Part shown: piece after piece, positions 12,283-58,968 of the stretch
How positions within the stretch are numbered: position 1 is the stretch's first letter
How the letters are laid out: each line of letters starts with the position of its first letter
DNA from: Acidobacteriota bacterium
GTDB lineage: Bacteria > Acidobacteriota > Thermoanaerobaculia > Gp7-AA8
Length of the DNA stretch: 64,000 nucleotides
Direction: 5' to 3'
NCBI GenBank assembly: GCA_021325515.1
Contig: JAJPHC010000030.1
Span: 78,976-142,975, forward strand
Made by a program: the position numbers and the translations under genes
The notes under the pieces: model-generated
The model's input: the letters and a program-made list of their open reading frames with translations, nothing else
The model's database searches: none
What the model was told of the DNA's origin: nothing

Positions 12283-13134
12283 ATGATGTCCAACACCTAT
12301 CGACGCGCTCTCCTGGTGGCGGCGACGGTGACTCTCATCACCGCATCGGCCCGCGCCGCCGACGAAGCGGCCACGTACTTCCGGCAGAACTGCATGAGCT
12401 GCCACACGATCGGAGGCGGCCGTCTCGTCGGCCCTGATCTCAAGGACGTCACGCAACGGCGCGACAAAGGCTGGCTGCAGAAATTCGTCGCCAATCCGAA
12501 GTCGTATCTCGACGGCGGCGATCCCTACGTCGCGAAACTGAAAGAAGACGCACGGGGCGCCGTGATGCCGAACATCGCCGGCATCGACGAAGCCCGAGCG
12601 CTCGCGCTGCTGGAGATGATCGAGCGCGAGTCGAAGCTTCCCAAATCGCAATTCGCCGGTCTCAATATCGGAGACCAGCCATTTACTCCATCCGACATCG
12701 CAAATGGACGGGCCATCATCCTCGGCGAAAAGCATCTGGCCAACGGCGGCCCGGCCTGCGTCTCCTGCCACTCCGTCGACAACATCTCCATCCTCGGCGG
12801 CGGCAAGCTCGCGCCCGATCTGACGAAAGTCTTCGAACGAATGCGCGGCCGGAAGAATCTCGCGTCATGGCTGCAGGCGCCGGCGACGCCGACCATGCGC
12901 CCTCTCTTCGCCAATCAGTCGATGACCAACGACGAGATCACGCAACTCGTCGCTTATCTCGAAACGACCGCACGCAAGCCGCAACAGACCGGCGACACCG
13001 CAACGCTCTCCTTCTTCTTCCTCGGCCTTGGCGGCTGTGTGCTGGGCTTCATCGGCGCCGACACCGTCTGGCGCAAGCGGCTGCGCGGCGTTCGCAAACC
13101 ACTCATTGAAGAAGCTCGGCGAGGTGACCGATGA
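12283..13134 (+). CDS. Dihaem c-type cytochrome with signal peptide and C-terminal TM anchor
   Basis: Two CXXCH motifs (CMSCH, CVSCH) are present. The N-terminus is a signal peptide ([25 protein letters not shown]). There is a C-terminal hydrophobic stretch. Its stop overlaps the narG start (ATGA). The upstream part of the 734-aa track ORF is spurious. Confidence 0.75.
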
Positions 13135-16100
13135 GCATCGGCTGGATTCAGGACGAAGCAACGCCCAACGGGCGCTCCTGGGAAGAGTTCTATAGAAACC
13201 GCTGGCAGCACGACAAGGTCGTCCGCTCGACCCACGGCGTGAATTGCACCGGCTCCTGCACGTGGCAGATCTACGTCAAGAACGGGATCGTCACCTGGGA
13301 GATGCAGGGACTCGATTATCCCGCGCTCGAGAACGGCCTCCCGCCTTATGAGCCGCGCGGCTGCCAGCGCGGCATCTCCTACTCCTGGTACCTCTATTCG
13401 CCATTGCGCGTGAAGTATCCGTACATGCGCGGCGCACTGATCGATCTCTGGAAGAGCGCGCGCAGTGCACACGAGGATCCCGTCGAGGCCTGGGCCTCCA
13501 TCATGGACGACCCCGAAAAGCGCCGGCGCTTTCAGAAAGCGCGCGGCAAAGGGGGATTCCGCCGCGCGTCGTGGGACGACGCGCTGGAATTGATGGCCGC
13601 CGCCAATCTGCACACGATCAGGAAATACGGGCCGGACCGCATCAATGGCTTCTCGCCGATTCCGGCGATGTCGATGATCAGCTACGCATCCGGCGCCCGG
13701 CTGATGCAGCTCATGGGCGGCGTCTCACTGTCGTTCTATGACTGGTATTGCGATCTCCCCAATGCGTCGCCGGAAGTATGGGGCGAACAGACGGACGTTC
13801 AGGAGTCGGCTGACTGGTACAACGCCAAGATGCTCGCCGTCATGGGGTCGAACCTCAACATGACGCGCACGCCCGATTGTCATTTTGCAGCCGAGGCGCG
13901 GCACAACGGTTCGAAGATGTGGGTCTTCGCGCCCGATTTCAATCAGGTCGCGAAATACGCAGACGAGTGGGCCGCCATCAATGCCGGACAGGATGGCGCG
14001 TGGTGGATGGCGGTCAATCACGTCATTCTCAAGGAAGCGCATTACGAGAAACAGACACCGTACTTCATCGATTACGCGAAGAAGTACAGCGACAGTCCTT
14101 ATCTCGTCGAGCTGATCCCAAGTGCAGGACAGGCGTTCAAGGCCGGCCGCCTCCTCCGCGCCAATCGCCTCAAGGCCTACCAGAACGTCGAGCACGGCGA
14201 CTGGAAGTTCCTCATGTGGGACGACACATCCGATCAGCCGAAGATGCCGATGGGCTCCGCGGGCTTTCGCTGGGGGCGTGAAAAGGGCAAGTGGAACCTG
14301 CTGCTCGAGGATGGTCTCTATGGCGACAAGATCGAGCCGGCGCTCACCTTCCTCGGCCGCGGCGACGTCGCGGTCAACGTCGAGTTCGACGATTTCGGCG
14401 CCGATCGCCGCTCGTTCCGCGGCGTGCCCGCGCGGTCCGTCGAGCTTGCGGACGGCTCGCGAGTGCTCGTCGCCACTGTTTATGACCTGCTCATGGCGCA
14501 ATACGGCGTCGACCGCGGTCTGGGCGGCGATTATGCGGGCTCTTATGACGACGACGGGCCGTTCACTCCCGCATGGCAGGAGAAATACACCGGCCTCTCG
14601 CGCGACATGGTCATCAAGTTCGCGCGCGAATGGGCGCGCACGGCGGAACTGACACAGGGGAAGTGCACCGTCATCATCGGCGCCGGCATCAATCACTGGT
14701 ACCACGCCAATCTGATGTACCGCGCGGCGATCCACGCGCTGATCTTCTGCGGCTGCATCGGCGTCAATGGCGGCGGACTCGCCCACTATGTCGGCCAGGA
14801 GAAGCTCGCGCCCGGCGAGCCGTGGGGCGCAGTCGCCTTCGGCAAGGACTGGATCCCCTCCTCGCGCCAACAGAACGCGCCGAGCTGGCACTACGTCCAT
14901 TCCGACCAGTGGCGTTATGAGCGATCGTTCACGGAATACCACCGTCTGCCGCGCGAGGCGAACGACTCGACGAAAGATCACACGATCGATCATCAGGTTC
15001 GCGCCGTCCGGCGTGGCTGGCTCCCCTTCTATCCACAGTTCAACAAGAGCTCGATCGAGATCGTGGCCGAGGCCGAGAAGGCGGGCTGCAGAAGCGATCA
15101 GGAGATCATTGATTACGTCGTCGCGCGCCTGAAATCGAGCGAATTGAAATTCGCGGTGGAAGATCCCGACGCGGAAGAGAACTGGCCGCGCGTTTTCTAC
15201 ATCTGGCGCGGTAACGCACTCATGTCGTCGGCCAAGGGCCACGAATATTTCCTCAAGCATTATCTCGGCACGCACAACAACTCCGTCTCACAGGATCTCG
15301 CCGGAGATTCCGTGAAGGAAGTCGTGTGGCGGGAGCAGGCACCGGAAGGAAAGATGGACCTCATCGTCGATCTCAACTTCCGCATGGACACCTCGGCGCT
15401 CTACTCCGACATCGTTCTGCCCGCCGCCACCTGGTACGAGAAGGCCGACATCAACTCGACCGACATGCACAGCTTCATTCATCCGCTGTCGAAGGCGGTG
15501 CCGCCGTGCTGGGAGTCGAAGAGCGACTGGCAGATCTTCCGCGCGCTGGCAAAGAAGTTCTCGGAGCTTGCGGCGAAGCACTTCCAGGCACCGGTCCGCG
15601 ATCTCGTCGCGACGCCTCTGGCACACGACAGCGCCGCGGAGATCGCACAGAGCGAACCACGTGACTGGTTCCGCGGCGAGTGCGAGGCGATTCCCGGCAA
15701 GACCATGCCCGGCCTCAAGATCGTCACGCGCGATTTTCGCGATGTCTACAAGCAGTACATCTCCTTCGGACCAGAAGCGCGCAAGAACGGACTCGGCGCA
15801 CATGGGACGCACTATGCGATCGACGACTTCTATGACGCCATGCTCACCGAGAAACCGACGGTGTGCTGGAATCACGAAGGCTCGTCGAAGCCCTGCTTCG
15901 CAATCAATGGCACGTCGGGCTGCAAGCGCTATCCCTCGCTCCGTGAAGATGAACATGCCGTCGATTTGATCCTCCACCTCGCCACAGTGACGAACGGCGA
16001 GCTCGCCTGGCGCAGCTACAAGGAGATGGAAGCCAAGGTCGGCCTTCCGCTGACGCACCTCGTCGAGAAACAGCGCGGCGTCAGGGTCTCTTACGCGGAT

Positions 16101-16805
16101 CTGCAATCCAGGCCGCATCGCTTCGTGAATTCGCCGATGTGGTCCGGCCTCATCGAAAACGGCCGCGTCTATTCGCCGTTCACCTACAACGTCGAATGCC
16201 TCGTGCCGTGGCGCACGCTCACCGGCCGCCAGCACCTCTATCTCGATCATCCGACCTACATCGAGTTCGGCGAGCATCTGCCCACATACAAGCCCAAGCC
16301 CCTCCCTGCCGAATATGCCGACCTCCGCTTCGCGGAGCAGAACACGAACGCGAAGATGCTCAATTACCTGACGCCCCACGGCAAGTGGCACATCCACTCG
16401 ACGTACGGCGACAACCAGCGCATGACGACGCTGTCGCGCGGCGTCGAGCCGTTCTGGATGAACGACAGCGATGCCGACGAGCTGGGCATTCAGGACAACG
16501 ACTGGGTGGAAGTCTTCAATGACCACGGCGTCGTGGTGACGAGAGCCGCGGTGTCGGCGCGCATCCCGCGCGGCATCTGCATCCAGTACCACTCGCCGGA
16601 ACGGACGTACTCCGTGCCCAAGTCGCCGCTGCGCGGCAACAAGCGCGCCGGCGGCCACAACTCGCTGACCAGAACACGCCTCAAGCCAAACCTGATGATC
16701 GGCGGCTACGGCCAGTTCACCTTCCACTTCAACTACTGGGGACCGACAGGCTGTAACCGCGACACACATGTACTGGTGAGGAAACTGCCCGAATTGAATT
16801 GGTGA
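13131..16805 (+). CDS. narG: Respiratory nitrate reductase alpha subunit, copy 2 (full length)
   Basis: The N-terminus carries the H/C-x3-C-x3-C Fe-S motif ([12 protein letters not shown]). The protein is 1224 aa with Mo-bisMGD family blocks along its full length. No twin-arginine signal is present. Confidence 0.95.
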
Positions 16806-16823: not shown

Positions 16824-16903
16824 ATAGGACCTATGGGACCTATGGGACCTATAGGGAGCCACCCATAGGTCCTATAGGTCCCATAAGGTCCCATAAGTCC
16901 CAT
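16824..16903. repeat. 80-bp imperfect palindrome built from tandem octamers (GGACCTAT x3 ... ATAGGTCC-like x4) in the narG2-narH2 spacer
   Basis: Read directly: ataggacctatgggacctatgggacctataggga gccacc cataggtcctataggtcccataaggtcccataagtcccat. It is absent from operon copy 1, where narG and narH overlap. Confidence 0.6.
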
Positions 16904-16925
16904 CGCTGCCACGAGGAGCCAATTA

Positions 16926-36457: not shown

Positions 36458-38172
36458 CACCGTACCCCCTCCGGGAAGGGAATGATGGGATCGACGTCGA
36501 CCGGCAGGTCCTTCGCCGCTTCGAGCGCCCCCTTCAACTCCTCCGGCATCCTGTCGTACTTCGCAAACCACGCCTCGGCCCGCGCGCGGTCGCCCGCGGC
36601 CTCGATCTCCAGCAGCTCTTTCGTCAGCGCGGCGATCGAGTCCGGCATCTTCTCGAGCGCCATTTCATATCGCCCGCTGCTGTTGCGCGTGATCGCGCCC
36701 CGTTCACGCAGGAAGTTGAACTCCATCATCTCTGCGCGGCCATGCGCCTCGCCGACGCCAAAGCGAACCGTGCGGAAGATGCCGGCAACGTACGACGCGT
36801 AGTACTCGTTGAGGCGCTCCTGCGGCAGCGCGCCATGCTCGACGAGCCACTTCAGACCGTACATGCCGGTGATGTCGGCCTTGGCCTCTTCCAGCGCGGA
36901 GTAGATCGGGCCGACGGCGGCGCGAATGTCAACCTGTTGACCATTCTGGCGCGCGAAAGCCGGGCCCAGCCCGTGACAGATCTCGTGCATCATCACCACG
37001 GTCAGCGTCCCCTCGGCCGACGCCATCGCGGCCTGGTCCTGCCGCATCACCCGCTTCGCGACGGGCAAGATCACATCGTTCACGCGCGCATCCATGTAGT
37101 TCTTGAAGAAGATCTTCTTGCTGCCCGCCTGCTGGTGGATCTTCGGATCATTCGGCAGATTGTCGGCAACCGCCTGGTAGCCGTGCCGCAGATCGCCGGC
37201 GCGGAACGGCGTATCCATCACTTCCATCGGCGACGCGTGGCCATGTTTCGACGGCCGGTCCTCGGCGGGCAGCGGAAGCGCGTCCTGAATGTCCGGAACG
37301 TACTTCTGAAACACGGCGAGCTTCCGGCTCTCCGGCTCGTTGCGGATCATCACCGCCGCGCCGTACGAGGTCTTCACGCCGAGGAGGCCGTCGAGGTAGG
37401 TTTCGTAGGGAGCGAAGATGACATCGATCTTCGGGTCTTTCATCTCCGCGACCCACACCAGATCGCTCGGATAGTAGTTGTCGTCGAGCAGCGCCTTGGC
37501 GCGGAGGCGGAGGAACCTGGCGAACGTCCTGTCCGGCGTGGCCGCAGCGGCGTTGCGCAAGTGCGAGGCCGCGCTGACGAGCCACTTGTGGTACTTCACG
37601 TGATAGGGCGTCGTCTTGAGCTTCAGCGGATCGCGGCTCACTAGTTCGACGACGGTGCGTTCGTCGTAGATCGCCTTCTTCTGTTCCGGATGTGCGGCGA
37701 CGTACTTCTCGATGTCCTCGCGGGTGAGCCCTTCGGGATAGAGGCTGCGGCCGGGCGGCATCGGCTCGCTGCCGTAGAACGGGCGATTCTCGTCGATCTG
37801 ATCGTAGTGGCTGCCCTGAATCCAGAGGTAGTGGTGCAGCGCCGGGTTAGCCTTGGCCGTCGCGTGATAGAGCTCGATGTCCGAGGGGGTCGCCTGCCGC
37901 CAGTAGATCTCTTCCAGATCGCGGCTTGCGGCAATCAGCTCCTGAACGGCCTTCCGTTCACCGGCAGAAAGATCGGAGCCGGTGAAGGTCATCTCCACCT
38001 TCTGAAACTTCTGCAGACGTTGTTCGATGTCGGGAGCAACCTTCGACGGATCGTAAGGCGCCGCGGCGAGCAGCAGGACCGCTGATAGGGCGAGAAGGCC
38101 AAATTGAAACTTGAACATTGAAAATTGAAAATTGGCCAGCGACTTCTTCATGCGCGAGATTGTAGTCCGCAC
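36457..38172 (-). CDS. Secreted zinc metallopeptidase, M49 (dipeptidyl-peptidase III)-like with an HEXXH variant
   Basis: An HEICHG motif and a downstream EEAKAD motif match the two DPP3 zinc-ligand blocks (HEXXGH / EECRAE). The signal peptide is partly encoded by heptamer-repeat DNA (FQFSMFKFQF). Confidence 0.5.
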   Translation of the reverse strand: MRTTISRMKKSLANFQFSMFKFQFGLLALSAVLLLAAAPYDPSKVAPDIEQRLQKFQKVEMTFTGSDLSAGERKAVQELIAASRDLEEIYWRQATPSDIELYHATAKANPALHHYLWIQGSHYDQIDENRPFYGSEPMPPGRSLYPEGLTREDIEKYVAAHPEQKKAIYDERTVVELVSRDPLKLKTTPYHVKYHKWLVSAASHLRNAAAATPDRTFARFLRLRAKALLDDNYYPSDLVWVAEMKDPKIDVIFAPYETYLDGLLGVKTSYGAAVMIRNEPESRKLAVFQKYVPDIQDALPLPAEDRPSKHGHASPMEVMDTPFRAGDLRHGYQAVADNLPNDPKIHQQAGSKKIFFKNYMDARVNDVILPVAKRVMRQDQAAMASAEGTLTVVMMHEICHGLGPAFARQNGQQVDIRAAVGPIYSALEEAKADITGMYGLKWLVEHGALPQERLNEYYASYVAGIFRTVRFGVGEAHGRAEMMEFNFLRERGAITRNSSGRYEMALEKMPDSIAALTKELLEIEAAGDRARAEAWFAKYDRMPEELKGALEAAKDLPVDVDPIIPFPEGVR

Positions 38173-38192
38173 ACTGGCATTTTCAATTTTGC

Positions 38193-38320
38193 TCCACGCT
38201 CGTGCTCGCTAGTGCGAAATTGAAAATTGAAAATTGAAAATTGAAAACGAAAGGCGGATCTTGCTTCGTTTTTCAATTTTCAATTTTCAATTTTCAATTT
38301 CGAAGCTCCACGCTCGTGCC
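38193..38320. repeat. MITE-like element. A near-perfect ~38-bp-arm hairpin built from tandem AATTGAA heptamers, flanked by 15-bp direct repeats GCTCCACGCTCGTGC
   Basis: Read directly: gaaattgaaaattgaaaattgaaaattgaaaacgaaag gcggatcttg cttcgtttttcaattttcaattttcaattttcaatttcg. The direct repeats lie at 38193-38207 and 38306-38320. The element overlaps the stop codon of the PAS-GGDEF-EAL gene. Confidence 0.6.
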
Positions 38321-41300
38321 CGCCTGCAGCAGTGTCTCGAAAGCTTCGGCCGACACCGGCCTGCTGATCAGGAAGCCCTGCGCTGCCGTGCACTGTTCGC
38401 GCTGAAGGAACGCGAGCTGCTCCTGCGTCTCCACTCCTTCCGCCACCACGCGCAGCCGCAGCGCCCGCGCCATCGAGATCACGGCCGAGATGATCGCGCC
38501 GTCGCTGGAATCGGCGGAGAGATCGCGCACGAAGTCCTGATCGATCTTCACAGTGTCGATCGGGAAGCGCTTGAGATAGTTCAGCGAGGAGTAGCCGGTG
38601 CCGAAGTCATCAATGGAGATGCGGATGCCCATCTCCTTCAACCGCTTCATGATGGCCAGCGACAGATCGGCGTTCTGCATCGCGGTCGACTCGGTGATCT
38701 CGAGGTCGAGCAGCTCCGGCGGGAAACCGGTCTCTTCGATGACGCGCTCCACCATGCGCGTGAGATCGCGCTGCTGGAACTGGCGCGGCGAGAGGTTCAC
38801 CGCGATGCGCAGCCCGCCGTGCCCGGCGTCATGCCACTGCTTCATCTGCGCGCAGGCGGTGCGCAATACCCACTCCCCGATCGGAATGATGAGCCGCGTC
38901 TCCTCGGCGATGGGGATGAACTCGTCGGGCGGCATCATTCCGAATTCCGGATGGCTCCAGCGGATCAGCGCCTCGGCTCCCGAGATCGTGCCGGTGGCAA
39001 GATCGATCATCGGCTGGTAGTGCACGATGAACTCCTTGCGGTCGAATGCGTGATGCAGGCTGTTCTCGAGCGTCAGCCGCTCCGCCCCTTCCATCACCGT
39101 CACGAACTGGAAATTGTTGCGCCCCATCTCCTTGGCGCGATACATCGCGCGATCGGCGTTCTTGAGGAGCGCTTCCGCATCCTCTCCATCGTCGGGAAAC
39201 AGCGCGATGCCGAGCGAGGTGGTGACGAAGAGCTCGTGGCGCTCGACGACGAACGGCTGGCCGATCGAATCGAGCACTTTCTGCGCGACTCCGATCGCCG
39301 CGCGCCGGTCGGCAACATCGCTGAGCAGCACGGTGAACTCGTCTCCCCCCATCCGCGCGACCGTATCCTCGGCCCGCACGCAGTTGACGAGGCGATCCGC
39401 CACCGCCTGCAGCAGCCCGTCGCCCACCGTGTGGCCGAGTGTGTCGTTCACGAGCTTGAACTGATCGAGATCGAGGAACATGACCGCGGCGACGCGTCCG
39501 CTGCGCCGGGCGCGCGCCAGTGCGACCGTGATGCGGTCGCGGAACAGCAGGCGGTTCGGCAGGCTGGTCAGAGCATCGTGATACGCCTGCCACTCCATCT
39601 TTTCCTGCGCGGTCTTGCGATCGGTGATGTCGATGATCGTCCCTTCGATCACATTCCCATCGAGCACCGCGACGTTCTCGAGAACCCACACGGGAGAGCC
39701 GTCCCGCCGCTTCATCCGCCTCTCGACGTTGGTCAGCGACCCCTGCTCCTGCAGCGCCTGCAAGTACCTCTTCCGGTCATCCGGCTCGAAGTAAAGATCG
39801 AGTGCGGATGCCACGCGCATCAGCTCTTCATTCGAGTCGTAGCCGAAGATGCGCGCCATCGCGTCATTGCATTCGAGCATGCGCCCTTCGACGGTGCTGC
39901 GGAAGACGCCTGCGAGATTGCGCTCGAAAAGGAGCCGGAAGCGCGCCTCGTTCGATTTGCGCTCCGTCACATCGCGCGCGATGCCCTGCACTCCGATGCT
40001 CTTGCCGTCGCGGAACACGAGGCGTGTATTGACCTCGACCGGAATGCGCCGGCCGTCCTTGGCCTGCAGATCGATCTCGTACGATGTGGTGTGGGTTTCG
40101 TCGGCGACCTTGCGCCGGAAATTCGAAGCCGCACGCTCGACGTCATCGGGTGCAATGAACTGTTGGATCGTCATCGAGAGCGCTTCGTCGAGCGTGTAGC
40201 CGGTCGTGCGAAGACCGGCCAGATTCATCGACGTGATGCGTCCCTCGAGGTCGTGCGTGTAGACGATGTCGTTCGCGTTCTCGAAAAGATCGCGGTAGCG
40301 CGTCTCGCTCTGCCGCAGCGAAGCCTCGATCGCTTTTCGTTCAGAGATGTCGCGGGCCACGACCTGAATGGCCGGCTTCCCATCGATCTGAAAGGAGATC
40401 GCTGCGACTTCGACATCGACGGCGGTGCCATCGCGCTTGAGGAACTTCTCTTCGATCAGCGGCACCTCGCGTCCTCGCGACAGCACGCGCAGCCGGCTTC
40501 GCACCGTCGTGCGATAGTCGGGATGCACGAGCGTCATGATGTCGCGGCCCACGAGCTCTTCCGCTGACGCGGCTCCAATCAGCCTCACCGCGGCGGTGTT
40601 GACGAACGTCAGCTTGCCTTCCTGATGCACGAAGATCGCATCAGGGCTCAGCTCCACCACGTTCCGATACCGCTCCTCGCTCTCGCGCAGTCTCTCTTCG
40701 GCGCCCCTCCGCTCGGTGACGTCCTGCGCGATGACGAGCCGCGAGCGCTTTTCACCGAAGAGGAACTCGAACGAGGTGATCTCGACGTCGATGATCTTTC
40801 CGCTGCGGATGCGATGGCGGAAGAGCGCGCGATCGCGCTTCTCCGGCGGATTACGCAATGCCTCTTCCATCTGCGGCAGATCTTCCTGCGGGCGGATGTC
40901 GAGGATCGTCATCTCCATGAATTCTTCGCGGAGGTAGCCGTAGTGTGCGATCGCCGCATCGTTCACTGCGATGAACCGCAAGGTGTCGAAGTCGTAGACC
41001 CACATCGGCAGCGGATTCGCGTCGAAGAGCGTGCGGTAGCGCGTCTCGCTTTCGCGCAGCGCTTCTTCCGCCCGCTTGCGCTCCGTGTAGTCCGTCGCGA
41101 CGTAGATCGCGGCGACGGGAGTGCCATCCGCCTGGCGCACGAATGACGACTGCGCGAGCACGTCGAGCGCCGAGCCGTCCGCCGTCCGCCAGAGCATCGT
41201 CTGCTCCAGCACGCCGGTGCTCTCCAGAATCTGCGCGGTGCTCGTCGCTTCGTTGCGCTGGATGATGTTGCGGATGTGGAGGCCGACCATCGTCGGCGCG

Positions 41301-42091
41301 TCGAAGCCGAGCATCGCGCCGGCCGCGCGGTTCACGACGCGGATCTTGCCATCCATGTCGACGACGAGCACCGCCCCCTTCATCGTCTCGAGGATCTGTC
41401 CCGCCGCGAACTCCGGGGTGAGGTCGATGACTTCGTAATTCCAGACCGCGCGCGCCGCGACGATGGAGAACGCGAGCACGGCCATGTAGCCGACCGGGTA
41501 CATGTCGATCCCCATCGAAGGGAAGACATCGACGAGCGCGAGACTGCCGACGGCGAGCGCGAGCAGCATGAGCCCCGTTCGCTCGCGCGTCTGCCCCTCC
41601 GATTGCTGATGCGCATTCCAGAGAAGGCGCATTGCATAAAGGAGGATGAGGCCGTAGGTCGCCGCCCAGATGAAATTCAAGGGCGAGCCGTTGGCGTACC
41701 AGCCCCAGGAGTAGTGGCGCACGGCCGGGATGAGAATCGGCGACGCTGCGCCGATGAGCGCCACCGTGATGCAGAAGAACCAGGAGAGGCCGAGGCGGAC
41801 TCGCAGGCGCTGGCGGGTGCCGGTGTAGACCGAGACGAAATTCAGAATGATCGCCGGAATGAGCGCGGCTGCCACATGGCCGGCACGCGCCCACAACAGA
41901 GCGACATGCGGCGAGAGCGACGAATACATCAGCGCGAAACAGCCAAGCCACGCCGCGGCACTCGCTGTGATTAATGAGAAGAGGATGCTGCCGCGCGCGC
42001 CGCGCCCCCGGAGGGCGACACCAGCGCCGAGACAGAAGGCGACGGCTGCCGTGATCGCAGTCGCAAGCGCCAGAGGGTTCGCCGCGTACAT
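38294..42091 (-). CDS. Membrane-anchored multi-PAS / GGDEF / EAL c-di-GMP signalling protein
   Basis: An N-terminal polytopic segment is followed by at least four PAS-like repeats. A GGDEF domain (RMGGDEFTVLL) and an EAL domain (EALIRW...DDFGTGYSSL...KIDQ) follow. The protein is 1265 aa. Confidence 0.85.
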   Translation of the reverse strand: MYAANPLALATAITAAVAFCLGAGVALRGRGARGSILFSLITASAAAWLGCFALMYSSLSPHVALLWARAGHVAAALIPAIILNFVSVYTGTRQRLRVRLGLSWFFCITVALIGAASPILIPAVRHYSWGWYANGSPLNFIWAATYGLILLYAMRLLWNAHQQSEGQTRERTGLMLLALAVGSLALVDVFPSMGIDMYPVGYMAVLAFSIVAARAVWNYEVIDLTPEFAAGQILETMKGAVLVVDMDGKIRVVNRAAGAMLGFDAPTMVGLHIRNIIQRNEATSTAQILESTGVLEQTMLWRTADGSALDVLAQSSFVRQADGTPVAAIYVATDYTERKRAEEALRESETRYRTLFDANPLPMWVYDFDTLRFIAVNDAAIAHYGYLREEFMEMTILDIRPQEDLPQMEEALRNPPEKRDRALFRHRIRSGKIIDVEITSFEFLFGEKRSRLVIAQDVTERRGAEERLRESEERYRNVVELSPDAIFVHQEGKLTFVNTAAVRLIGAASAEELVGRDIMTLVHPDYRTTVRSRLRVLSRGREVPLIEEKFLKRDGTAVDVEVAAISFQIDGKPAIQVVARDISERKAIEASLRQSETRYRDLFENANDIVYTHDLEGRITSMNLAGLRTTGYTLDEALSMTIQQFIAPDDVERAASNFRRKVADETHTTSYEIDLQAKDGRRIPVEVNTRLVFRDGKSIGVQGIARDVTERKSNEARFRLLFERNLAGVFRSTVEGRMLECNDAMARIFGYDSNEELMRVASALDLYFEPDDRKRYLQALQEQGSLTNVERRMKRRDGSPVWVLENVAVLDGNVIEGTIIDITDRKTAQEKMEWQAYHDALTSLPNRLLFRDRITVALARARRSGRVAAVMFLDLDQFKLVNDTLGHTVGDGLLQAVADRLVNCVRAEDTVARMGGDEFTVLLSDVADRRAAIGVAQKVLDSIGQPFVVERHELFVTTSLGIALFPDDGEDAEALLKNADRAMYRAKEMGRNNFQFVTVMEGAERLTLENSLHHAFDRKEFIVHYQPMIDLATGTISGAEALIRWSHPEFGMMPPDEFIPIAEETRLIIPIGEWVLRTACAQMKQWHDAGHGGLRIAVNLSPRQFQQRDLTRMVERVIEETGFPPELLDLEITESTAMQNADLSLAIMKRLKEMGIRISIDDFGTGYSSLNYLKRFPIDTVKIDQDFVRDLSADSSDGAIISAVISMARALRLRVVAEGVETQEQLAFLQREQCTAAQGFLISRPVSAEAFETLLQAGTSVELRN

Positions 42092-48715: not shown

Positions 48716-49192
48716 ATGAGTCTGGCTGCCGTGCTCCTCTTCGCCGCCTCGCAGAACATCGCGAATCCGAACATCGACATGGCTGCCTATCTGCGCGCCG
48801 CATCCGAAGCGGCCGCCGAGCGGCAGACGCATCGCCTCACCGAGGATGAATTCATCGCGATGAGCCGGATGCCGGGGACGGTGATCCTCGATGCGCGCAG
48901 CGCTGAGATGTACCGGCTGCGCCACGTGCGCGGCGCGATCAATCTCAGCTTTCCCGACATCGCGATCGCAAGCCTCGCGAAGCTCCTGCCGGACAAGAAC
49001 ACGCGCATCCTCATCTACTGCAACAACAACTTCCGAGGCGATGAGATCGCGTTCGCGTCGAAGATCGCGCGCGCGTCGCTGAATCTCTCGACTTACATCG
49101 CGCTCTACAGCTACGGCTACAGGAATGTGTGGGAGCTCGGCCCGCTGCTGGATGTGAAGACAACGAAGATCGAGCTCGAGGGGACTCACTAG
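48716..49192 (+). CDS. Rhodanese-domain sulfurtransferase-like protein
   Basis: Rhodanese active-site loop context ILIYCNNNFRG. The protein is ~158 aa with an N-terminal signal-like segment. Confidence 0.55.
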   Translation: MSLAAVLLFAASQNIANPNIDMAAYLRAASEAAAERQTHRLTEDEFIAMSRMPGTVILDARSAEMYRLRHVRGAINLSFPDIAIASLAKLLPDKNTRILIYCNNNFRGDEIAFASKIARASLNLSTYIALYSYGYRNVWELGPLLDVKTTKIELEGTH

Positions 49193-49206
49193 GGAACGAC
49201 GAGCTC

Positions 49207-49947
49207 TCAGCTTGTCCTTCTCGCGACGAGCAGCAGGCCCGGCCCGAACGGCACCCACGAGAACAGCTCGTCGATCGTGAAGAGCGCGCGCACGAACGCC
49301 ACGAGCATGCGCGACTTCCCTGCCCTGCGCACCGTGCCCAGCATCGCATCGTCATCGATCCGATGCTTCGCGCGGCGGCGGTTCATCGGCCGCAGCAGCA
49401 CATAGTCATAGATCAGCGCGAGCGGGAAACCCCAGTAGCTCGCCTTGGCAACCCGCATCCCAGCCGATTGAAACAACGCGCGCAACTGTTCGCGCGAGTA
49501 GCGCCGGCGATGTTCGTAATAGACGTCCGACGTGCTCCAGAGACTCATCAGCGCGGGGACAGTCGTGACGCAGAGGCCATCCTCGCGCAGGACGCGGCGG
49601 ATCTCACCAGCGGCTGCACCATCGTGCTCGAGATGCTCGAGCGTCTCGCCCGAGGTCACGCCGTCGAAGGCGCCGTCGCGAAAGGGCATGCGCGTCATGT
49701 CGCCGACGACCACGGGAATCGAGCTCGTCCGTTTCACGTGCAGCGCGGCCTCGAACGAATAGTCGATGCCGGTGACGCGGAAGCCGCGGCCCTGCAATTG
49801 CGCCGCGAGAGTCCCGAGTCCGACCGCGCCGTCGAGCACGCGGGAGCCGTCCGGCAGGCGCTCGACCTCACGCACGATGCGGCCGAGCCGGTGCGCGTGA
49901 AGCGGGCCAAACATCTCGGGCTGCGTGCCCCATTCGTGAGTCGGCAT
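49207..49947 (-). CDS. Class I SAM-dependent methyltransferase
   Basis: Motif I VLDGAVGLGTL and post-motif DGVTSGETLEHLEHD. Confidence 0.7.
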   Translation of the reverse strand: MPTHEWGTQPEMFGPLHAHRLGRIVREVERLPDGSRVLDGAVGLGTLAAQLQGRGFRVTGIDYSFEAALHVKRTSSIPVVVGDMTRMPFRDGAFDGVTSGETLEHLEHDGAAAGEIRRVLREDGLCVTTVPALMSLWSTSDVYYEHRRRYSREQLRALFQSAGMRVAKASYWGFPLALIYDYVLLRPMNRRRAKHRIDDDAMLGTVRRAGKSRMLVAFVRALFTIDELFSWVPFGPGLLLVARRTS

Positions 49948-50016
49948 GATGCGCTACCGTATCGCTCGGGGCGCCGTCAGGAATTCCCGCGCGACCCTTC
50001 GTGTAGACTACGCGAA

Positions 50017-51549
50017 ATGTCTCAACGCGTTCTTCTGATTGGCCCGCCCTGGGGCGATGTCTACGGCAACTTCAAACATGTGGCGAAAGTCGGCGTCTTC
50101 TACCCGCCGCTCGGCCTCTGCTATCTGAAAAGTCCCCTCGTCGCAGCAGGTTACGACGTCAAAGTCGTCGATGCCGAGGCGTCGGGCTTCTCGATGTCCG
50201 ACATCCTCTCCGTCGTCGGCGACTACAACCCGGACATCATCGGCATTCAGGTCGTCTCGCCTCTGTGGGAAACGGCGAAGAGCATCGCCGCCGCAGTCCG
50301 GGAGCGCTTCCCGAAGATCATCAATGTCTGCGGTGGCCCGCACGTCACGCTGACACATGTCGATGCGATGAAAGAGGCGCCGCAGTTCGACTACGCCGTG
50401 CTCTCCGAATCCGAGGATGGATTTACGGAGCTCGTCGAAGCGATCACGAAGGGCGACTCGAACGATCTCGACAAAGTCGGCGGCATTCTCTATCGCCGCA
50501 ACGGCGAGATCCGCAGGACGCAGCCGCGCACACTGCGCCCCGATGTCGACAATCTCCACTTCCCCGACCGCCGCGATCTCGATCACAGCAAGTACCTCTT
50601 CAGCGTTCCCGGCGCAGGCATCCGCCGCTTCACCACGATCATCACGTCGCGCGGCTGCCCCTACAACTGCACGTTCTGCACGGAGCCGCTGATGTACGGC
50701 CGCACGACGCGCTTCCGCTCCGCGCGGAACGTCGTCGATGAAGTGCAGGACTTTCACGACCGGCACAACATCAATCACTTCATCTTCGTCGACGACACGC
50801 TCACCACGCGCAAAGAGCGGATCATGGAGATGTGCTCCCTTCTGCGCGAGCGCAAGCTCGACATCACGTGGGAGGGGTGGACGCACGTCAACACCGTCGA
50901 TCAGGATCTGCTGCACGAAATGCATGCGGCGGGACTGCGCCGCCTTTCGTTCGGCATCGAGTCCGGCAACGCGGAAGTGCTGCAGTCTCTCAAGAAGAAC
51001 TCGACGCTGCCGCGCATTCGCGAGGCCTATCGCTGGGCCAAGAACGCCGGCATCGAGACCCGCGGCTCCGTCATCCTCGGCCTCCCCGGCGACACGCGGA
51101 AGTCGGCGCAGGAGACGATCGACTTCGTCGTCGGCCTCAAGGAATGCGATCACGCTTACTTCAACATCGCGATGCCGTATCCCGGCACCGAGATCCGCCG
51201 CCAGGCGCTCGCAGGTGAAGCAGGCGTTCGCCTGCTGACCGAGGAGTATTCGGAGCTGCGGAGACAGGGGCAGAAGGTCGTGATGGAGGTCAATGACCTC
51301 GACACGAAGGCGCTGCTCCAACTGCAGCGCCAGGCCTATCTCCGTTTCTGGCTGACACCGCGGCGCATCTGGTACAACGTCGTCCGCTCCGGCTTCAAGG
51401 CAGCGCTGCAGAATGGATGGGCGTTCTTCCGCTCATTCGTGATGCCGACGCGCAACGGCCGCATCCGCTTCATCTCCGAGATCACCGATATTTACGAGGC
51501 GGTGTCGGGCCGTGCGTGGAGCGCGCAGGAGAAGGATAAGGCGGCGTAG
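50017..51549 (+). CDS. B12-binding-domain radical SAM protein (class B radical SAM)
   Basis: An N-terminal cobalamin-binding-like domain (VLLIGPP...GLCYLKSPLVAAGYDVKVVD). Radical SAM Cys triad CPYNCTFC. The protein is 510 aa. Confidence 0.8.
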   Translation: MSQRVLLIGPPWGDVYGNFKHVAKVGVFYPPLGLCYLKSPLVAAGYDVKVVDAEASGFSMSDILSVVGDYNPDIIGIQVVSPLWETAKSIAAAVRERFPKIINVCGGPHVTLTHVDAMKEAPQFDYAVLSESEDGFTELVEAITKGDSNDLDKVGGILYRRNGEIRRTQPRTLRPDVDNLHFPDRRDLDHSKYLFSVPGAGIRRFTTIITSRGCPYNCTFCTEPLMYGRTTRFRSARNVVDEVQDFHDRHNINHFIFVDDTLTTRKERIMEMCSLLRERKLDITWEGWTHVNTVDQDLLHEMHAAGLRRLSFGIESGNAEVLQSLKKNSTLPRIREAYRWAKNAGIETRGSVILGLPGDTRKSAQETIDFVVGLKECDHAYFNIAMPYPGTEIRRQALAGEAGVRLLTEEYSELRRQGQKVVMEVNDLDTKALLQLQRQAYLRFWLTPRRIWYNVVRSGFKAALQNGWAFFRSFVMPTRNGRIRFISEITDIYEAVSGRAWSAQEKDKAA

Positions 51550-51626: not shown

Positions 51627-51689
51627 GCCTAGCGCCTAGCGCCTAGCGCCTAGCGCCCAGCGCCCAGCGCCTAGCGCCCAGCGCCCAGA
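51627..51689. repeat. Perfect tandem heptanucleotide microsatellite (GCCYAGC)9
   Basis: gcctagc x4, gcccagc x2, gcctagc, gcccagc, gcccaga. In total 63 nt between convergent genes. Confidence 0.7.
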
Positions 51690-51690
51690 C

Positions 51691-52629
51691 TCACAGATCC
51701 ACCCCGCTCCCCGCGACCACCTGCGCGTGATTGAGTGCAGCGACGAGCAGCACACCTCCGATCACGTTTCCTGTCAGCGCGGGCAGCAGGAATCCCATCG
51801 CGAACTCGCTCCATGAGCTGCCGCCCACGAGCACGAGGAACGCGGTCTCGACGGCTCCTGCGATGACGTGGCTGAACTGCGCGAGTGCGATCACGTAAGT
51901 GATCACGCCGATCACCCAGACACGTGCGGCCTCTGCGAACGGCAGCAGCCAGACGGTCAATGCGATCAGCCAGCCCGCGAAGATGCCGCGCAGCAAGGTC
52001 GCCGCGAATCCCGAGGTCTGCGCGTGACGCGCCAGCTCCACCATGCTGCGGAAGGCTTCCTCATCGACGATTTGCGTCCGCGCCAGCACGAAGGCCATGA
52101 CGAGACTGCCGGCAAGATTCGCTGCGAAGACGACGCACCAGAGCCGCACGACGTTGATGAACGTCGCGCGATTGCGATGCTGCAGGAGTGGAAGAATCAC
52201 AGTCAGCGTGTTCTCGGTGAAGAGCTGCTGTCTGCCGAGAATCACGATCAGGAAGCCGACGGGATAACCGAGGGCGACGAGGAGCGGGCGCCATTGGGAA
52301 TCGGGAAGGTGGGCGTGGATCAGCGCGGGCGTGATGAACGAGAAGCTCATCGACAGACCGGCGGCGAGACCCGACCACGCCAGCGCCTGCGATGGGCGCT
52401 GCAGCTCGCTCTCCCCTTCGCTGAAGATCGCCCGGTACACCACTTCGCCGGTCGGTGCACTTCGTTCTTCCGCTTCGTCCAGCGCTGCCTGATCGGTCAC
52501 GCCGCGCTGGTTGTGCAAGAGGCGGCCCAGCCATCCCCAACTCGCCGCTGCACCCACCAATTTTGTATCCCAATTATGTATCATCGATCTCATGCGCAGA
52601 CTGCTGATCGTTCTCTCGTTCCTGGCCAT
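51691..52629 (-). CDS. Formate/nitrite transporter (FNT) family channel; possibly nitrite-related given context. Start uncertain
   Basis: FNT signatures LFTENT and GNVIGG with a 6-TM core. The longest ORF (to 52737) and the ATG at 52629 both overlap the divergent lipoprotein gene start at 52592. A GTG at 52500 gives an FocA-like N-terminus. Confidence 0.65.
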   Translation of the reverse strand: MARNERTISSLRMRSMIHNWDTKLVGAAASWGWLGRLLHNQRGVTDQAALDEAEERSAPTGEVVYRAIFSEGESELQRPSQALAWSGLAAGLSMSFSFITPALIHAHLPDSQWRPLLVALGYPVGFLIVILGRQQLFTENTLTVILPLLQHRNRATFINVVRLWCVVFAANLAGSLVMAFVLARTQIVDEEAFRSMVELARHAQTSGFAATLLRGIFAGWLIALTVWLLPFAEAARVWVIGVITYVIALAQFSHVIAGAVETAFLVLVGGSSWSEFAMGFLLPALTGNVIGGVLLVAALNHAQVVAGSGVDL

Positions 52630-53881
52630 CCTCGCCGCATGCAGGAAGAAGGAAGCTGCCGCGACCGCGACGGCATCCTCCGCCGCTGCGACCGCAACTT
52701 CGCCGGCATTCACGCAGAAGACGCTTCCCGTGCACAACGGTGAAAACCTCGTGGCGCTCGCATCCGGTGCGATGCCTGTGATTCGCGCCGGCGCGCCCGA
52801 GCAGGGAGGCGAGGCGTACTACATGTTCGACGAAGATCCGCTGACGGGATGGGCCAGCAACGACGGCAAGTACAACGAGCCGACCGTCGTCGAGCTCGCG
52901 GATCGAAGCATCATCCACTCCGTCGAGTTCGACGAAAAGAACATCGCGTACGACGGCCGCTTGCCGCAGGGAGTGCTGATCGAAGTCTCCGACACGAGCG
53001 CCACCGACGGCTTCAAGCCGATCGCGAACGTGACGATGACCGAGATGAAGGACGGGCAGACCTTTCCCGTCTCCGCCGAAGTGCCCGGCCGCTGGGTGCG
53101 AATCTCCGTCAAGAAGGCCGCATCCGATGCCGCGATCGCGCAGATCATGGAGTTCCGCGCGTTTGGCGAGCGGCTCACGCACAATCCCGTGCCCGACATC
53201 ACCGGCACGTACGAAACCAACGCAGGCAAATTCCATCTCAAGCAGCAGGGCACTTCGGTCACCGGCTGCTACGACAACGGCAGCGAGCCGCTGATCGGCG
53301 GGATGGAGGGACGCATCCTGAAGTTCCGCTACGCAGTCGGAGAAAACGGCAGCGGCCCTGCGCTTCTCGTCACGTCGAGCACCGGCGATGTTTTCGGCGG
53401 ATGGTGGCGAACGGACAGCAAGGTGGTCGAGCATCCCACGCTCGATCCGATCGAAGGAAAGCGGATCAGCACCGACCCGGGCAACACCGCATGCCCGCAA
53501 TGGGCAGCGCCGGAAGCGCAGATGGCGTCGGAGCTGAAGCAGAAGGGACGCGTGCAGCTCTACGGCATCAACTTCGACAGCGATTCGGATGTCATCCGCG
53601 ACGAATCGAAGCCGGCACTCGATCAGGTCGTGGCGATGTTGAAAGCGGACGCAGGCCTGAAGCTGACAATCGAAGGCCACACCGATTCGACCGCAACGCC
53701 GGAGCACAATCTGGAGCTGTCGACGAAGCGCGCAAACGCGGTGAAGCAATACCTCACCGCCGCAGGCATCGACAGCGCCCGTCTCGACGCAGCCGGCCGC
53801 GGCGCCACGCAACCGGTGGCCACGAATGACACGCCGCTGGGACGCGCTGCGAATCGGAGAGTGGAATTGGTGAAGCGCTGA
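52592..53881 (+). CDS. OmpA-family lipoprotein with an N-terminal discoidin-like domain
   Basis: Lipobox LAILAAC. C-terminal OmpA/MotB peptidoglycan-binding domain (LYGINFDSDSDVIRDESKPALDQVVAML...TIEGHTDSTATPEHNLELSTKRANAV). Confidence 0.65.
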   Translation: MRRLLIVLSFLAILAACRKKEAAATATASSAAATATSPAFTQKTLPVHNGENLVALASGAMPVIRAGAPEQGGEAYYMFDEDPLTGWASNDGKYNEPTVVELADRSIIHSVEFDEKNIAYDGRLPQGVLIEVSDTSATDGFKPIANVTMTEMKDGQTFPVSAEVPGRWVRISVKKAASDAAIAQIMEFRAFGERLTHNPVPDITGTYETNAGKFHLKQQGTSVTGCYDNGSEPLIGGMEGRILKFRYAVGENGSGPALLVTSSTGDVFGGWWRTDSKVVEHPTLDPIEGKRISTDPGNTACPQWAAPEAQMASELKQKGRVQLYGINFDSDSDVIRDESKPALDQVVAMLKADAGLKLTIEGHTDSTATPEHNLELSTKRANAVKQYLTAAGIDSARLDAAGRGATQPVATNDTPLGRAANRRVELVKR

Positions 53882-57190: not shown

Positions 57191-57958
57191 ATGTCCGTAC
57201 GTGCCGCTCAGGCGCTTTATCACCGGTTGATTCCCGCCTCGATCCGCAATCCGATCGGCGCATTCCGGCGCCGCCTCGGCGATCGTGTGCGCCGGGCGAG
57301 CGTGCCGTATCCGCTTCCCCCTGCGCGGCTTCTGCGCAATGTGCAGCTCACGCCCTACGTCAAGGAGTACCTCTCGGTGGGCCGCAAGTCGGCCGAATCG
57401 ATCATCGCCGCGCTCGCTTCGCGGAGCCCGGCTCGCGTGCTCGATTTCGGATGCGGCTCGGCACGCACGCTGCGGCATCTGCGCAACACGGGATGGGAGC
57501 TATACGGCTGCGACATCGACGCGGACGCGATCGCGTGGTCGCGCAGCGCACTTCCCTTCGCGCGCTTCGATGTCAACGGCGCGGAACCGCCACTCCCCTA
57601 CGCCGGCGCGTTGTTCGACGCCGTCTACACGATCTCCGTCTTCACGCATTTCCCGCCGGGACAGCAGGAGCGCTGGGCTGCCGAGATGGCGCGCGTGCTG
57701 CGCACCGGCGGAACGCTCGTCGTCTCGAGCGTTGGCTTCACGGCACTCCAGGCATTCGCGGGCAGCGCGGAGAATCTCGCGCAACTGGAGGCGGAGGGAA
57801 CCTTGTTCATCCGCGGCACCGAGGAGTTCAACGCGAGCGGCATGTACCACGCGCGGGCCGGACTCGAGCGGCTCTTCGGCCCTCACTTCACGATGGATGT
57901 CCACGAGGAGCGCGGGCTGGATGGCTTTCAGGATCTGACGATCTTCACGCGCCGGTAG
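57191..57958 (+). CDS. Class I SAM-dependent methyltransferase
   Basis: Motif I VLDFGCGSARTL. The start was set at the internal ATG. The 3' end overlaps the convergent GT2 gene by 14 nt. Confidence 0.65.
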   Translation: MSVRAAQALYHRLIPASIRNPIGAFRRRLGDRVRRASVPYPLPPARLLRNVQLTPYVKEYLSVGRKSAESIIAALASRSPARVLDFGCGSARTLRHLRNTGWELYGCDIDADAIAWSRSALPFARFDVNGAEPPLPYAGALFDAVYTISVFTHFPPGQQERWAAEMARVLRTGGTLVVSSVGFTALQAFAGSAENLAQLEAEGTLFIRGTEEFNASGMYHARAGLERLFGPHFTMDVHEERGLDGFQDLTIFTRR

Positions 57959-58844
57959 TGCTCTCTCCTCGAATCAGTCCCCAGACGATTCCGCAGAAAT
58001 ACGTCGCGTGATGTGCCGCGAAGGCGGCCGGGATCACCGGCCAGTAGCGCAGCGGCAGGCGCGTATGGCGTGCGCCGAGAATGAGCGTGGCGATGACGTA
58101 GAGCGGCAGGGACACGGGAAGGGCGAGCAATCCGATCAGACCCAGCAGCAGGAACGCGCGCACTTTCGGCGGTCTGATTCCGCGCTCGCGCATCATCCGT
58201 CCGGTCTTCACGCGATAACGCCAGCGCTGCGCGAGATACGCGCCGGGAAACGCGCGGCGGCGATGGAAGACTCGCACCGTGTCGCTGTAGACGGCGTGCG
58301 GCAGCAGTTGCGTGAGCAATGCGGTGTCCTCGCCGATGTAGCCGATCGATTCGTCGAAGCCGGTGAATGCCGAGCGGCGCACGAAGAGATTCACCAGCGC
58401 GATATCGCTGGGATGCTGCAGAGGGAACGTTCCGCGCCGGTTCTCATGCGCCGCGACGCCGCTGCCGATGAGCGGCGTGGCGAGGAGCGTGTCGGAGATC
58501 AATTCGGCAATCGACGAGTCCGGCGGCGCGGGATCGGGACCGCCCAGCGCGAGCACGTCGGGATGCTCGTCGAGATACCGCACGGCATTCGCCAGCCAGT
58601 GCGGATCGGCGATCGCATCGTCGTCGATGAACGCCAGCAGCTCCCCCTCGGCGACGGAAGCTGCTCGATTTCTTCGAGTTGCGGGATTACGATTCGCCTC
58701 GACGACGTTTCGTACGCCGGTTCGTGCACACTCGGGAAGAGGCGCCGCCGACACGACGATCAACTCGTACGGAAATGCGGCTTCCTGATTGAGTACCGAC
58801 GCGATGGCTCGTTCCGCGTCGCCGCCGACCCGCTCCACTGGCAT
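57945..58844 (-). CDS. Family 2 glycosyltransferase (GT-A); N-terminus abuts or overlaps the heptamer-repeat element
   Basis: VSVIMPV(E)R...LNQ...ELIVVSAA...FIDDDA (DxD). The only in-frame ATG is the M in VSVIMPV. Upstream in-frame sequence is the repeat translated as FNFQFSIS. Confidence 0.65.
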   Translation of the reverse strand: MPVERVGGDAERAIASVLNQEAAFPYELIVVSAAPLPECARTGVRNVVEANRNPATRRNRAASVAEGELLAFIDDDAIADPHWLANAVRYLDEHPDVLALGGPDPAPPDSSIAELISDTLLATPLIGSGVAAHENRRGTFPLQHPSDIALVNLFVRRSAFTGFDESIGYIGEDTALLTQLLPHAVYSDTVRVFHRRRAFPGAYLAQRWRYRVKTGRMMRERGIRPPKVRAFLLLGLIGLLALPVSLPLYVIATLILGARHTRLPLRYWPVIPAAFAAHHATYFCGIVWGLIRGESTTGA

Positions 58845-58864
58845 GATGACGGAGACTCGAAGAG

Positions 58865-58941
58865 TCGAAATTGAAAATTGAAAATTGAAAATTGAAAATT
58901 CGCTCCGTCCCCCATTTTCAATTTTCAATTTCCAATTTTCA
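58865..58941. repeat. Heptamer (GAAAATT)n palindromic hairpin, second copy of the 38216-38302 element family, filling the divergent GT2/GT2 intergenic region
   Basis: Read directly: tcgaaattgaaaattgaaaattgaaaat tcgctccgtccccc attttcaattttcaatttccaattttcaatttcga. Confidence 0.6.
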
Positions 58942-58968
58942 ATTTCGATTCGCGAAGAACTGAGAAAA

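Follow-up and report, generated by a model that had tools for sequence, protein, structure and literature searches.

How does a bacterial gene come to end inside a palindrome of heptameric repeats, and what sort of element is this palindrome? The question is raised by a locus in an Acidobacteriota bacterium of the Thermoanaerobaculia (contig JAJPHC010000030.1 of assembly GCA_021325515.1; the whole 64-kb stretch that was analysed, positions 78,976 to 142,975 of that contig, is called the window), where an 88-bp palindrome with arms made of GAAAATT units (38215-38302) lies at the junction between a gene for a PAS-GGDEF-EAL protein and a gene for an M49-like peptidase, both on the minus strand. 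An earlier note on this DNA had interpreted the palindrome as a miniature inverted-repeat transposable element (MITE), flanked by a target-site duplication, that replaced the native C-terminus of the first protein. Our analysis leads, with moderate confidence, to a different answer, that is, that the palindrome is one copy of an extragenic palindrome family of Thermoanaerobaculia, which belongs to the class of heptameric simple sequence repeat (SSR) inverted arrays rather than to classical MITEs, and is probably transcribed as an intercistronic stem-loop.

The palindrome has 33-nt arms that are 100% complementary. The left arm (38215-38247) reads CGAAATT(GAAAATT)3GAAAA on the plus strand and the right arm (38270-38302) reads (AATTTTC)4.4 on the plus strand, i.e. 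CGAAATT(GAAAATT)3GAAAA on the gene strand, while the 22 nt between them (38248-38269) are unique and unrelated to the spacers of other copies (no strand is assigned to arms or spacer). In line with the ~87-bp hairpin with (GAAAATT)4-5 arms that had been described before, each arm corresponds to 4.4 units of period 7 with 100% matches according to Tandem Repeats Finder (TRF), and the outer 5 nt on each side of the spacer (ACGAA/TTCGT on the gene strand) extend the stem. In the window, the G+C content of which is 61-66%, 20 matches to GAAAATTGAAAATT with at most two mismatches were found versus 0.05 expected, all confined to two loci. Folded as RNA, the hairpin reaches -43.6 kcal/mol with a z-score of -10.2 (the hairpins scored have values of -10.2, -10.7 and -9.2). 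The AATTTTC strand is free of stop codons in all frames and the GAAAATT strand has a TGA in every frame.

The window contains two such GAAAATT hairpin loci and one array within coding sequence. The second hairpin (58866-58947, likewise without assigned strand) has the same ends as the first, CGAAATTG...CAATTTCG, and a different, 13-nt loop. A scan for (GAAAATT)3 with one genome per species returned at least 120 loci; among the matches listed are loci from Bacteroidota, Patescibacteria, Cyanobacteria, Planctomycetota and others, together with at least nine loci in metagenome-assembled genomes (MAGs) of Thermoanaerobaculia, which are also the source of the homologues of the window proteins. In Thermoanaerobaculia, the arrays are mostly inverted pairs forming hairpins, and the family arm consists of ~4.3 copies of GAAAATT, (G)AATT(GAAAATT)3GAAAA. 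Thirteen of the 24 perfect runs in this lineage are 30-31 nt long. The first unit is in most cases truncated to (G)AATTG, but CGAAATTG is found at this position in locus L001 and in the window hairpins, in all three of their perfect long arms. In other phyla, the lengths of perfect runs are broadly spread. Both singlets (L001, L026, L090, L131) and inverted doublets occur, the loops, which have no sequence in common, range from ~13 nt among all copies, and from ~28 nt among those of other Thermoanaerobaculia, to more than 350 nt, and in relatives a stop codon precedes the hairpin by 3-27 nt, the neighbouring genes being co-directional or convergent. The features that define SSR inverted arrays are all found here: at least three head-to-tail 7-nt units, multiple loci at gene boundaries, an inverted pair able to form a stem and occupation of the same site in relatives. 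Outside Thermoanaerobaculia, GAAAATT is not special because control heptamers match or exceed its count in viral contigs (45, 76 and 52 loci for three controls with identical composition, vs 39 for (GAAAATT)3), so the idea of a special motif spanning phyla was rejected.

These arrays sit at gene boundaries, persist at orthologous sites and keep their arms complementary while the units drift, which is best seen at the second hairpin. In an 87% orthologue of the adjoining GT2 glycosyltransferase (L129, same genome as L121), the orthologous hairpin is present with a related loop (gtgcagcggagcg vs gggggacggagcg) and ends from which one base is missing on each arm (CGAATTG...CAATTCCG vs CGAAATTG in the window). 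The hairpin is lacking in an 80% orthologue (L130), where a distance of 3 nt separates the two start codons. As many as 14 of the 120 listed GT2 orthologues have N-terminal extensions that are translated heptamer arrays at the same site, namely FSIFNFQFSI (CAATTTT units), FSILNSQFSI (CAATTCT) and SSILNPQSSI (CAATCCT), and in three of them (P0162, P0200, P0182) the other arm is also within the open reading frame (ORF), as LRIED/LRIEN encoded by (GAGGATT)n, the complement of AATCCTC. Since orthologues translate variant arrays at the same site, the GT2-site array appears to be old, with units and (where readable) both arms that seem to differ from the window in a complementary way, and the hairpin looks vertically inherited with units drifting in concert. 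Its persistence reaches relatives at ~70% identity. The numbers of units are near-equal between the window and its 87-90% relatives (4.9 vs 4.9; 4.7/4.6 vs 4.4/4.6).

The arrays are also occasionally absorbed into coding sequence, in three different ways in the window. First, ORF 57945..58979 (minus strand) stays open through the whole second hairpin because an arm mismatch, GGAAATT, which is a G.U pair on minus-strand RNA, converts an in-frame TGA to TGG; the native GTG start of the GT2 gene (GTG AAA GTC in L130) is GTC in the window. Public calls of the GT2 gene begin at an internal Met, losing the first beta-strand (KVSVI), and several GT2 orthologues are annotated with repeat-encoded N-terminal extensions. 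The use of G.U-compatible arm mismatches as a strand indicator was abandoned (copy 2 and L050 fit the sense strand, L005 does not, in too small a sample).

Second, a degenerate 33-nt array (38101-38133, minus strand; 4.9 units with 85% matches in TRF at 38101-38134) encodes NFQFSMFKFQF of the downstream peptidase ORF, whose match to Peptidase_M49 is weak but above threshold (26.1 bits vs a cutoff of 21). This third arm had already been read as part of the signal peptide, which is borne out by comparison with orthologues: these have MKKLLLALL...AAAPYDP, and the window protein has 14 more residues following MKK. The insertion is in frame, consists of 9 nt plus the 33-nt array (42 nt; 38101-38142, minus strand) and encodes SLANFQFSMFKFQF in the signal-peptide region. 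Among 120 listed orthologues, it is present only in the window and in the closest relative, P0241 (90% identity, MKKPRNFPFSIFNFQF...), and the gain of the array by the signal-peptide region goes back to an ancestor common to the two genomes. This array is older than the inner hairpin. In the closest relative, no hairpin or heptamer motif is found upstream of the peptidase gene, the region being disrupted by an insertion sequence (IS) element and other repeats. In that genome, JACXTT01, the GGDEF-EAL gene is separated from the peptidase gene by one for an IS630-like transposase (L121 9930-10160, L131 1-120), at which the assembly is split into two contigs.

The third way is the one that raised our question. 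The 1265-aa ORF 38294..42091 (minus strand), which encodes 7TM, PAS, GGDEF and EAL domains, ends with ...AGTSVELRN, and its last three codons (L, R, N) and TGA stop occupy 38294-38304. The R, N and stop codons (TGA at 38294-38296) are inside the right arm, and the Leu codon is outside (38303-38304 plus the first base of the repeat described next). Immediately upstream is one copy of a direct repeat, GCTCCACGCTCGTGC, which is exact over 15 nt (38191-38205 and 38305-38319, i.e. 1-2 nt away from the 38193-38207 and 38306-38320 of the earlier note, which was otherwise right about it) and reaches 19 nt with one mismatch (38191-38209 and 38305-38323). The gene-proximal copy (38305-38323, minus strand) encodes ...AGTSVE and is homologous to GCGGGCACGACCGTTGGGAGC in L121, and the distal copy (38191-38209, minus strand) is non-coding. 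As had been noticed, the right repeat and the arm supply the TSVELRN end and its stop, and the same frame after the distal copy would read ...TSVEQN followed by TGA at 38183-38185. The stronger claim that an insertion replaced the native C-terminus survives only in that the arm donates the last codons and the stop: 2-3 residues at most are changed in a tail that differs in every orthologue, and the putative "native" QN-stop end is itself repeat-encoded.

The 15-nt repeat is not due to chance because shuffled 35-nt flanks, in which the longest shared word averages 4.9 nt, never exceed 9 nt. On the gene strand, the locus reads as X (19 nt), TTCG, a forward array, 22 nt, a reverse array, 9 nt, X' (19 nt), AAAATTGAAAAT, 46 nt including the ATG and a degenerate reverse array, and the duplication effectively spans X together with the first part of the array, ~31-34 nt in all, if one substitution and a small indel are allowed for. 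On the plus strand, 38207-38216 is an imperfect tandem copy of the last 10 nt of the distal repeat (TRF row 38197-38215, period 10). In the closest GGDEF-EAL orthologue (P0001, 88% identity; L121, L122), coding sequence is common up to GCGGGCACGACCGTTGGGAGC before the gene enters a (GCAGAAC)3 array (L121 9807-9827) giving the tail ...GSRSEMQNAERRT and a stop. Because this orthologue reads GCGGGCACGACCGTTGGGAGC there, the gene-proximal copy appears to be native gene sequence, even if the sequence of the closest relative aligns about equally to both copies (GGAGC..CGAAAT vs GGAGCA..GAAATGC) and favours neither as the ancestral one, and in both genomes the end of the gene seems to have been written by heptamer repeats. 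The inner hairpin appears to have arisen at one stroke, by an event of ~114 bp in which 15-19 nt from the gene's 3' terminus were duplicated. A staggered cut at the target could have produced the direct repeat, as could a template that was switched twice at the foot of the hairpin.

More distant loci are of help here. In four orthologues with 73-75% identity, the order GGDEF-EAL then peptidase is kept with spacers of 29 nt (L127), 265 nt (L123), 473 nt (L126) and 724 nt (L125), none of the four spacers contains GAAAATT arrays or the hairpin, and the tails of the four proteins all differ. Removing the segment between the two repeat copies in the window leaves TGA, 31 nt and ATG, which is compact like the 29-nt spacer. 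In the metagenome collection, a degenerate 33-mer anchored in the EAL domain matched only JACXTT010000040, and a BLASTN comparison between the window and the first 120 loci of the scan yielded no match at E <= 1e-10.

How would the palindrome work, if it is an extragenic element of this kind? It would be transcribed with the GGDEF-EAL gene and fold into a ~38-bp stem, which may act like an intercistronic stem-loop of the repetitive extragenic palindrome (REP) or terminator type, either as a 3'-end barrier or as a target for a double-strand RNase, and so uncouple the two genes. A stem so long and regular is a plausible substrate for a double-strand RNase. In parallel, a leftover repeat motif might supply a -35 element to the peptidase gene, maybe giving a leaderless transcript. 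This motif, AAAATTGAAAAT (38179-38190, minus strand), is an isolated run of 1.7 units that is complementary over 12 of 12 nt to 38121-38132 and contains both the alternative stop TGA (38183-38185) and a -35-like TTGAAA (38186-38181). A TACAAT box (38159-38164, minus strand) lies 16 nt downstream of TTGAAA and 7 nt before the peptidase ATG (38149-38151, minus strand), which is in the context ATGAAGAA in five of six aligned loci (ATGACGAA in L126). A TA[C/G]AAT box is found 7-8 nt upstream of the start codon in all six loci (window, L123, L125, L126, L127, L131), none of which has a Shine-Dalgarno motif before the start codon, and this combination suggests a leaderless mRNA, with a putative -35 that is repeat-derived in the window. 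In a read-through transcript, the AAAATTGAAAAT motif and the third array can pair and enclose the start codon, a fold that is not significant by itself (z = -1.8).

The terminator side of this proposal needs qualification. Like bidirectional intrinsic terminators, the palindromes are symmetric with A-rich 5' and T-rich 3' flanks, and several copies in relatives lie between convergent genes; unlike them, 38215-38302 is AU-rich in its stem, and on the gene strand the complete stem is not followed by a U-tract, for which reason a canonical intrinsic terminator was rejected. The only site found in a scan for intrinsic terminators is weak and lies on the plus strand, in antisense orientation to the two genes; the gene strand has none. 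Other candidates were discarded too. With Rfam 15 at gathering score, the only match in the window is one tRNA, leaving the hairpin without a family; a CRISPR, attC or riboswitch is unsupported in view of this result and of the contiguity of the repeat units. The CodY box, AATTTTCWGAAAATT, has the same half-sites as the GAAAATT palindrome, and CodY is a regulator of Firmicutes and Synergistetes; a CodY operator was rejected on this host range and because the arms are in arrays and 22 nt apart. An exact-string search of the literature with GAAAATTGAAAATT found no bacterial report.

Several points weigh against the favoured answer: (i) the fixed length and outer phase of the arms resemble copying from a master sequence more than free slippage, (ii) arrays arise at sites with no seed, for example in the signal peptide, (iii) an insertion at a staggered cut would leave behind just such a repeat of 15-19 nt, for which simple slippage gives no explanation, (iv) instead of following a stop codon, the second hairpin is placed between two divergent GT2 genes, (v) the variant arm units at the GT2 site are deduced from protein translations rather than DNA, (vi) the stem of 38215-38302 is AU-rich, with a core containing only three G-C pairs and no U-tract 3' of it on the gene strand and (vii) transcription, 3' ends and processing at the hairpin are predictions made from sequence. 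Seedless arrays and length clustering together imply either a copying process of some kind or a strong constraint on length.

The alternative that survives best, although we regard it as doubtful, is the one with which this locus was first approached, namely a non-autonomous MITE or foldback element in which the arrays are terminal inverted repeats and which inserted just 5' of the native GGDEF-EAL stop with a 15-19-bp target duplication. It predicts a hairpin-free allele, ...GTGGAGCAAAATTGAAAATGCC, in which ...GCGGGCACGAGCGTGGAGC would be joined directly to AAAATTGAAAATGCCAGTG. Like MITEs, 38215-38302 is small, non-coding, has inverted ends and is flanked by a direct repeat of its target, which is exact over 15 nt (19 nt with one mismatch) and derived from native gene sequence. 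The inferred pre-insertion spacer of 31 nt resembles the 29 nt of L127, the hairpin is absent at the four orthologous loci, the ends of the two window copies are identical, and the arms have a standard length and phase in different loci and species. There is also a precedent at the end of the same gene: in L125, an unrelated 455-nt insert is bounded by an exact 17-nt direct repeat, CGGGTGATCAGGCCGTA (5263-5279 and 5735-5751), a duplication of the GGDEF-EAL 3' end that takes in most of the stop codon. The insert has a PIN-like remnant as well as a 60-aa ORF and is possibly a toxin-antitoxin cassette. This parallel suggests that an insertion process leaving long duplications may exist in the lineage.

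A MITE family, however, is recognised by internal sequence common to its copies, by target duplications that occur regularly and by a matching transposase. Internal sequence is not shared among the copies. The 15/19-mer belongs outside the element, as had been suspected, since it is absent from the second window copy and from 12 hairpins of other genomes; the former has no flanking repeat beyond 6 nt and the latter have repeats of 0-7 nt, within shuffle expectation, so that a direct repeat is found at only 1 of the 14 hairpin copies examined. No transposase, integrase or Y1 domain occurs among the ~40 ORFs of the 64-kb window. Moreover, the inferred target already held a heptamer motif, which suggests a homology-driven local event, and the GT2-site hairpin has been inherited vertically with concerted unit change. 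Target duplications of bacterial IS elements and MITEs are usually 2-14 bp, and the one seen here is longer. What remains of the MITE proposal is a genuine duplication of native gene sequence at this particular copy.

It is quite unlikely, in our opinion, that the 30-31-nt arms or inverted doublets were spread in trans by a Y1 transposase (RAYT, the REP-associated tyrosine transposase, or IS200-IS605-type) in the manner of REPs and their hairpin-forming doublets (REPINs), the direct repeat being then an unrelated local duplication. There is nonetheless a likeness: REP/REPINs are extragenic palindromic units of fixed length that occur as singlets and inverted doublets after stop codons, and their RNA stem-loops at mRNA 3' ends are what we propose for the GAAAATT hairpins. 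A Y1 transposase leaves no target duplication, and none is found at the 12 other hairpins; arm length and outer end are standard across loci and species, the same four singlet loci coexist with inverted doublets, and copies lie right after stops and between convergent genes. There are also differences. REPs come with a cognate RAYT gene and share a head motif that is conserved; the GAAAATT arrays of the window show neither, and no Y1 domain is found there. REPs are not known to consist of tandem 7-nt units. The spacers of the doublets are wholly unrelated, and each of the several heptamer families that coexist in JACXTT01 (GAAAATT, GCAGAAC/AATGCAG and AGCAGGC arrays are found together in this genome) would need its own enzyme.

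A bolder proposal, which we consider distinctly unlikely as well, is that the heptamer-array hairpins are a distinct structured element, with pairing under selection, as reflected in the joint change of both arms and in arms standardised near 31 bp even in the absence of G-tracts. A discrete process of copying, independent of known transposases and able to leave 15-19-bp target duplications, would then place it at new sites, reading frames among them.

Very unlikely too is a neutral by-product, in which arrays grow by slippage, template switching keeps them symmetric and the flanking repeat is a chance replication error. In citations of Mrazek (2007), heptamers are given as the long SSRs with the strongest over-representation in many bacteria, and slippage as the proposed cause. 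The viral-contig counts given above, and the orthologous sites such as L130 that are empty at no apparent cost, would agree with neutrality. It is difficult to reconcile with the 30-31-nt mode and fixed phase of the arms, with persistence of the GT2 site at ~70% identity with complementary change on both arms, and with the tight positioning at gene boundaries. Finally, a phase-variation (contingency) switch, in which gain or loss of 7-nt units in the peptidase or GT2 frames or in a promoter spacer would toggle genes (7 is not a multiple of 3, so that one unit shifts the frame, arrays do lie in N-terminal coding regions and beside a promoter-like site, and heptanucleotide SSRs control hmw expression in Haemophilus), is hardly credible with (near-)equal unit numbers in the window and its 87-90% relatives, a coding array broken by mismatches and 4-5 units, which is short for a hypermutable tract.

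The favoured reading, a heptameric SSR inverted array, has parallels elsewhere. In Xanthomonas, GGGAATC arrays consist mostly of 4 units, 70-75 inverted pairs are found among ~185 arrays, 89-93% are intergenic with an average distance of 28 nt from the neighbouring upstream ORF, and the same sites are occupied in two species (X. campestris and X. axonopodis) with variable sequence and length; their function was not identified (Rehm et al., 2015, PMC4692102). The GAAAATT arrays are similar in having 7-nt tandem units near four per array, frequent close inverted pairs, proximity to the end of the upstream ORF, a position mostly between co-oriented genes and occupation of the same intergenic sites in related species. 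They differ by an AT-rich unit, arms that are near-identical 30-31-nt blocks, presence within coding sequence as well and an Acidobacteriota host. The G-quadruplex account offered for the four-unit preference of GGGAATC is inapplicable here because GAAAATT has no G-tracts. With the class now found in Acidobacteriota with an AT-rich unit, a preference for ~4 units is thus not generally explicable by G-quadruplexes. Resemblance extends to the short tandemly repeated repetitive (STRR) heptamers of cyanobacteria and to the TAACTGA repeats of Beggiatoaceae, Cyanobacteria and Bacteroidetes, for which no mechanism of spread is known (MacGregor, 2015, PMC4679880): all are lineage-preferred heptamers with 2-6 or more copies at many intergenic sites, often directly before start codons, patchy across phyla and with stop codons in the repeat. 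Unlike TAACTGA (169 direct arrays and 1 indirect; PMC4679880), GAAAATT commonly occurs as inverted pairs. The GAAAATT copies are unlike MITEs, in turn, in the lack of a common internal sequence, in a duplication that is longer and present at one copy in 14, and in their vertical persistence with concerted unit change.

The implications go beyond this gene pair. Complementary changes of units at one orthologous site point to a pairing constraint or to templated correction. Arrays enter proteins as a signal-peptide insert, as C-terminal tails with stops and as N-terminal extensions, on which gene callers are inconsistent. Besides, a copy with a clean target duplication makes the route by which arrays reach new sites testable.

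Repeats of this general type abound in related DNA, where 7 is the commonest tandem-repeat period (47 of 133 TRF rows in 226 kb) and where inverted pairs of other units (AGCAGGC, AATGCAG, ACTCAGG) occur. Arrays of other heptamer families, including inverted pairs, were seen at L121 2501-2589, L131 3039-3134 and L050 2626-2704. In an Acidobacteria MAG, 17 AATTCTC units directly follow (AATTTTC)3 (L071 943-1063), and a Saprospiraceae MAG has ~12 perfect GAAAATT units (L077 ~6640-6730). Another family of intergenic palindromic repeats, GTGTCATTCCG...GGAATCCCCTGCCGATG...CGGAATGACAC, is present at L123 6805-6935 and L005 ~7085-7130, and repeats of the type GGGGAGAAGG...GCGGATGAGGGGG lie upstream of the peptidase gene in L125 and L131.

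The window itself contains two further arrays which, together with the hairpin at 58866-58947 and the motif at 38179-38190, come in addition to what the earlier note had described. One is a hairpin made of nonamer arrays (16827-16903), with (GGGACCTAT)3.3 facing 4.6 inverted units and an RNA fold of -55.9 kcal/mol (z = -7.9), between the genes for the alpha (13131..16805) and beta (ATG at 16925, preceded by GAGGAG) subunits of a molybdopterin oxidoreductase; in the paralogous oxidoreductase operon (90..4981), the alpha and beta genes overlap and the hairpin is absent. The other is a direct array of 8.4 heptamers (GCGCCTA/GCGCCCA; 51627-51688), which lies between convergent genes for a radical-SAM/B12-binding protein (49129..51549, plus strand) and a formate/nitrite transporter (51691..52737, minus strand).

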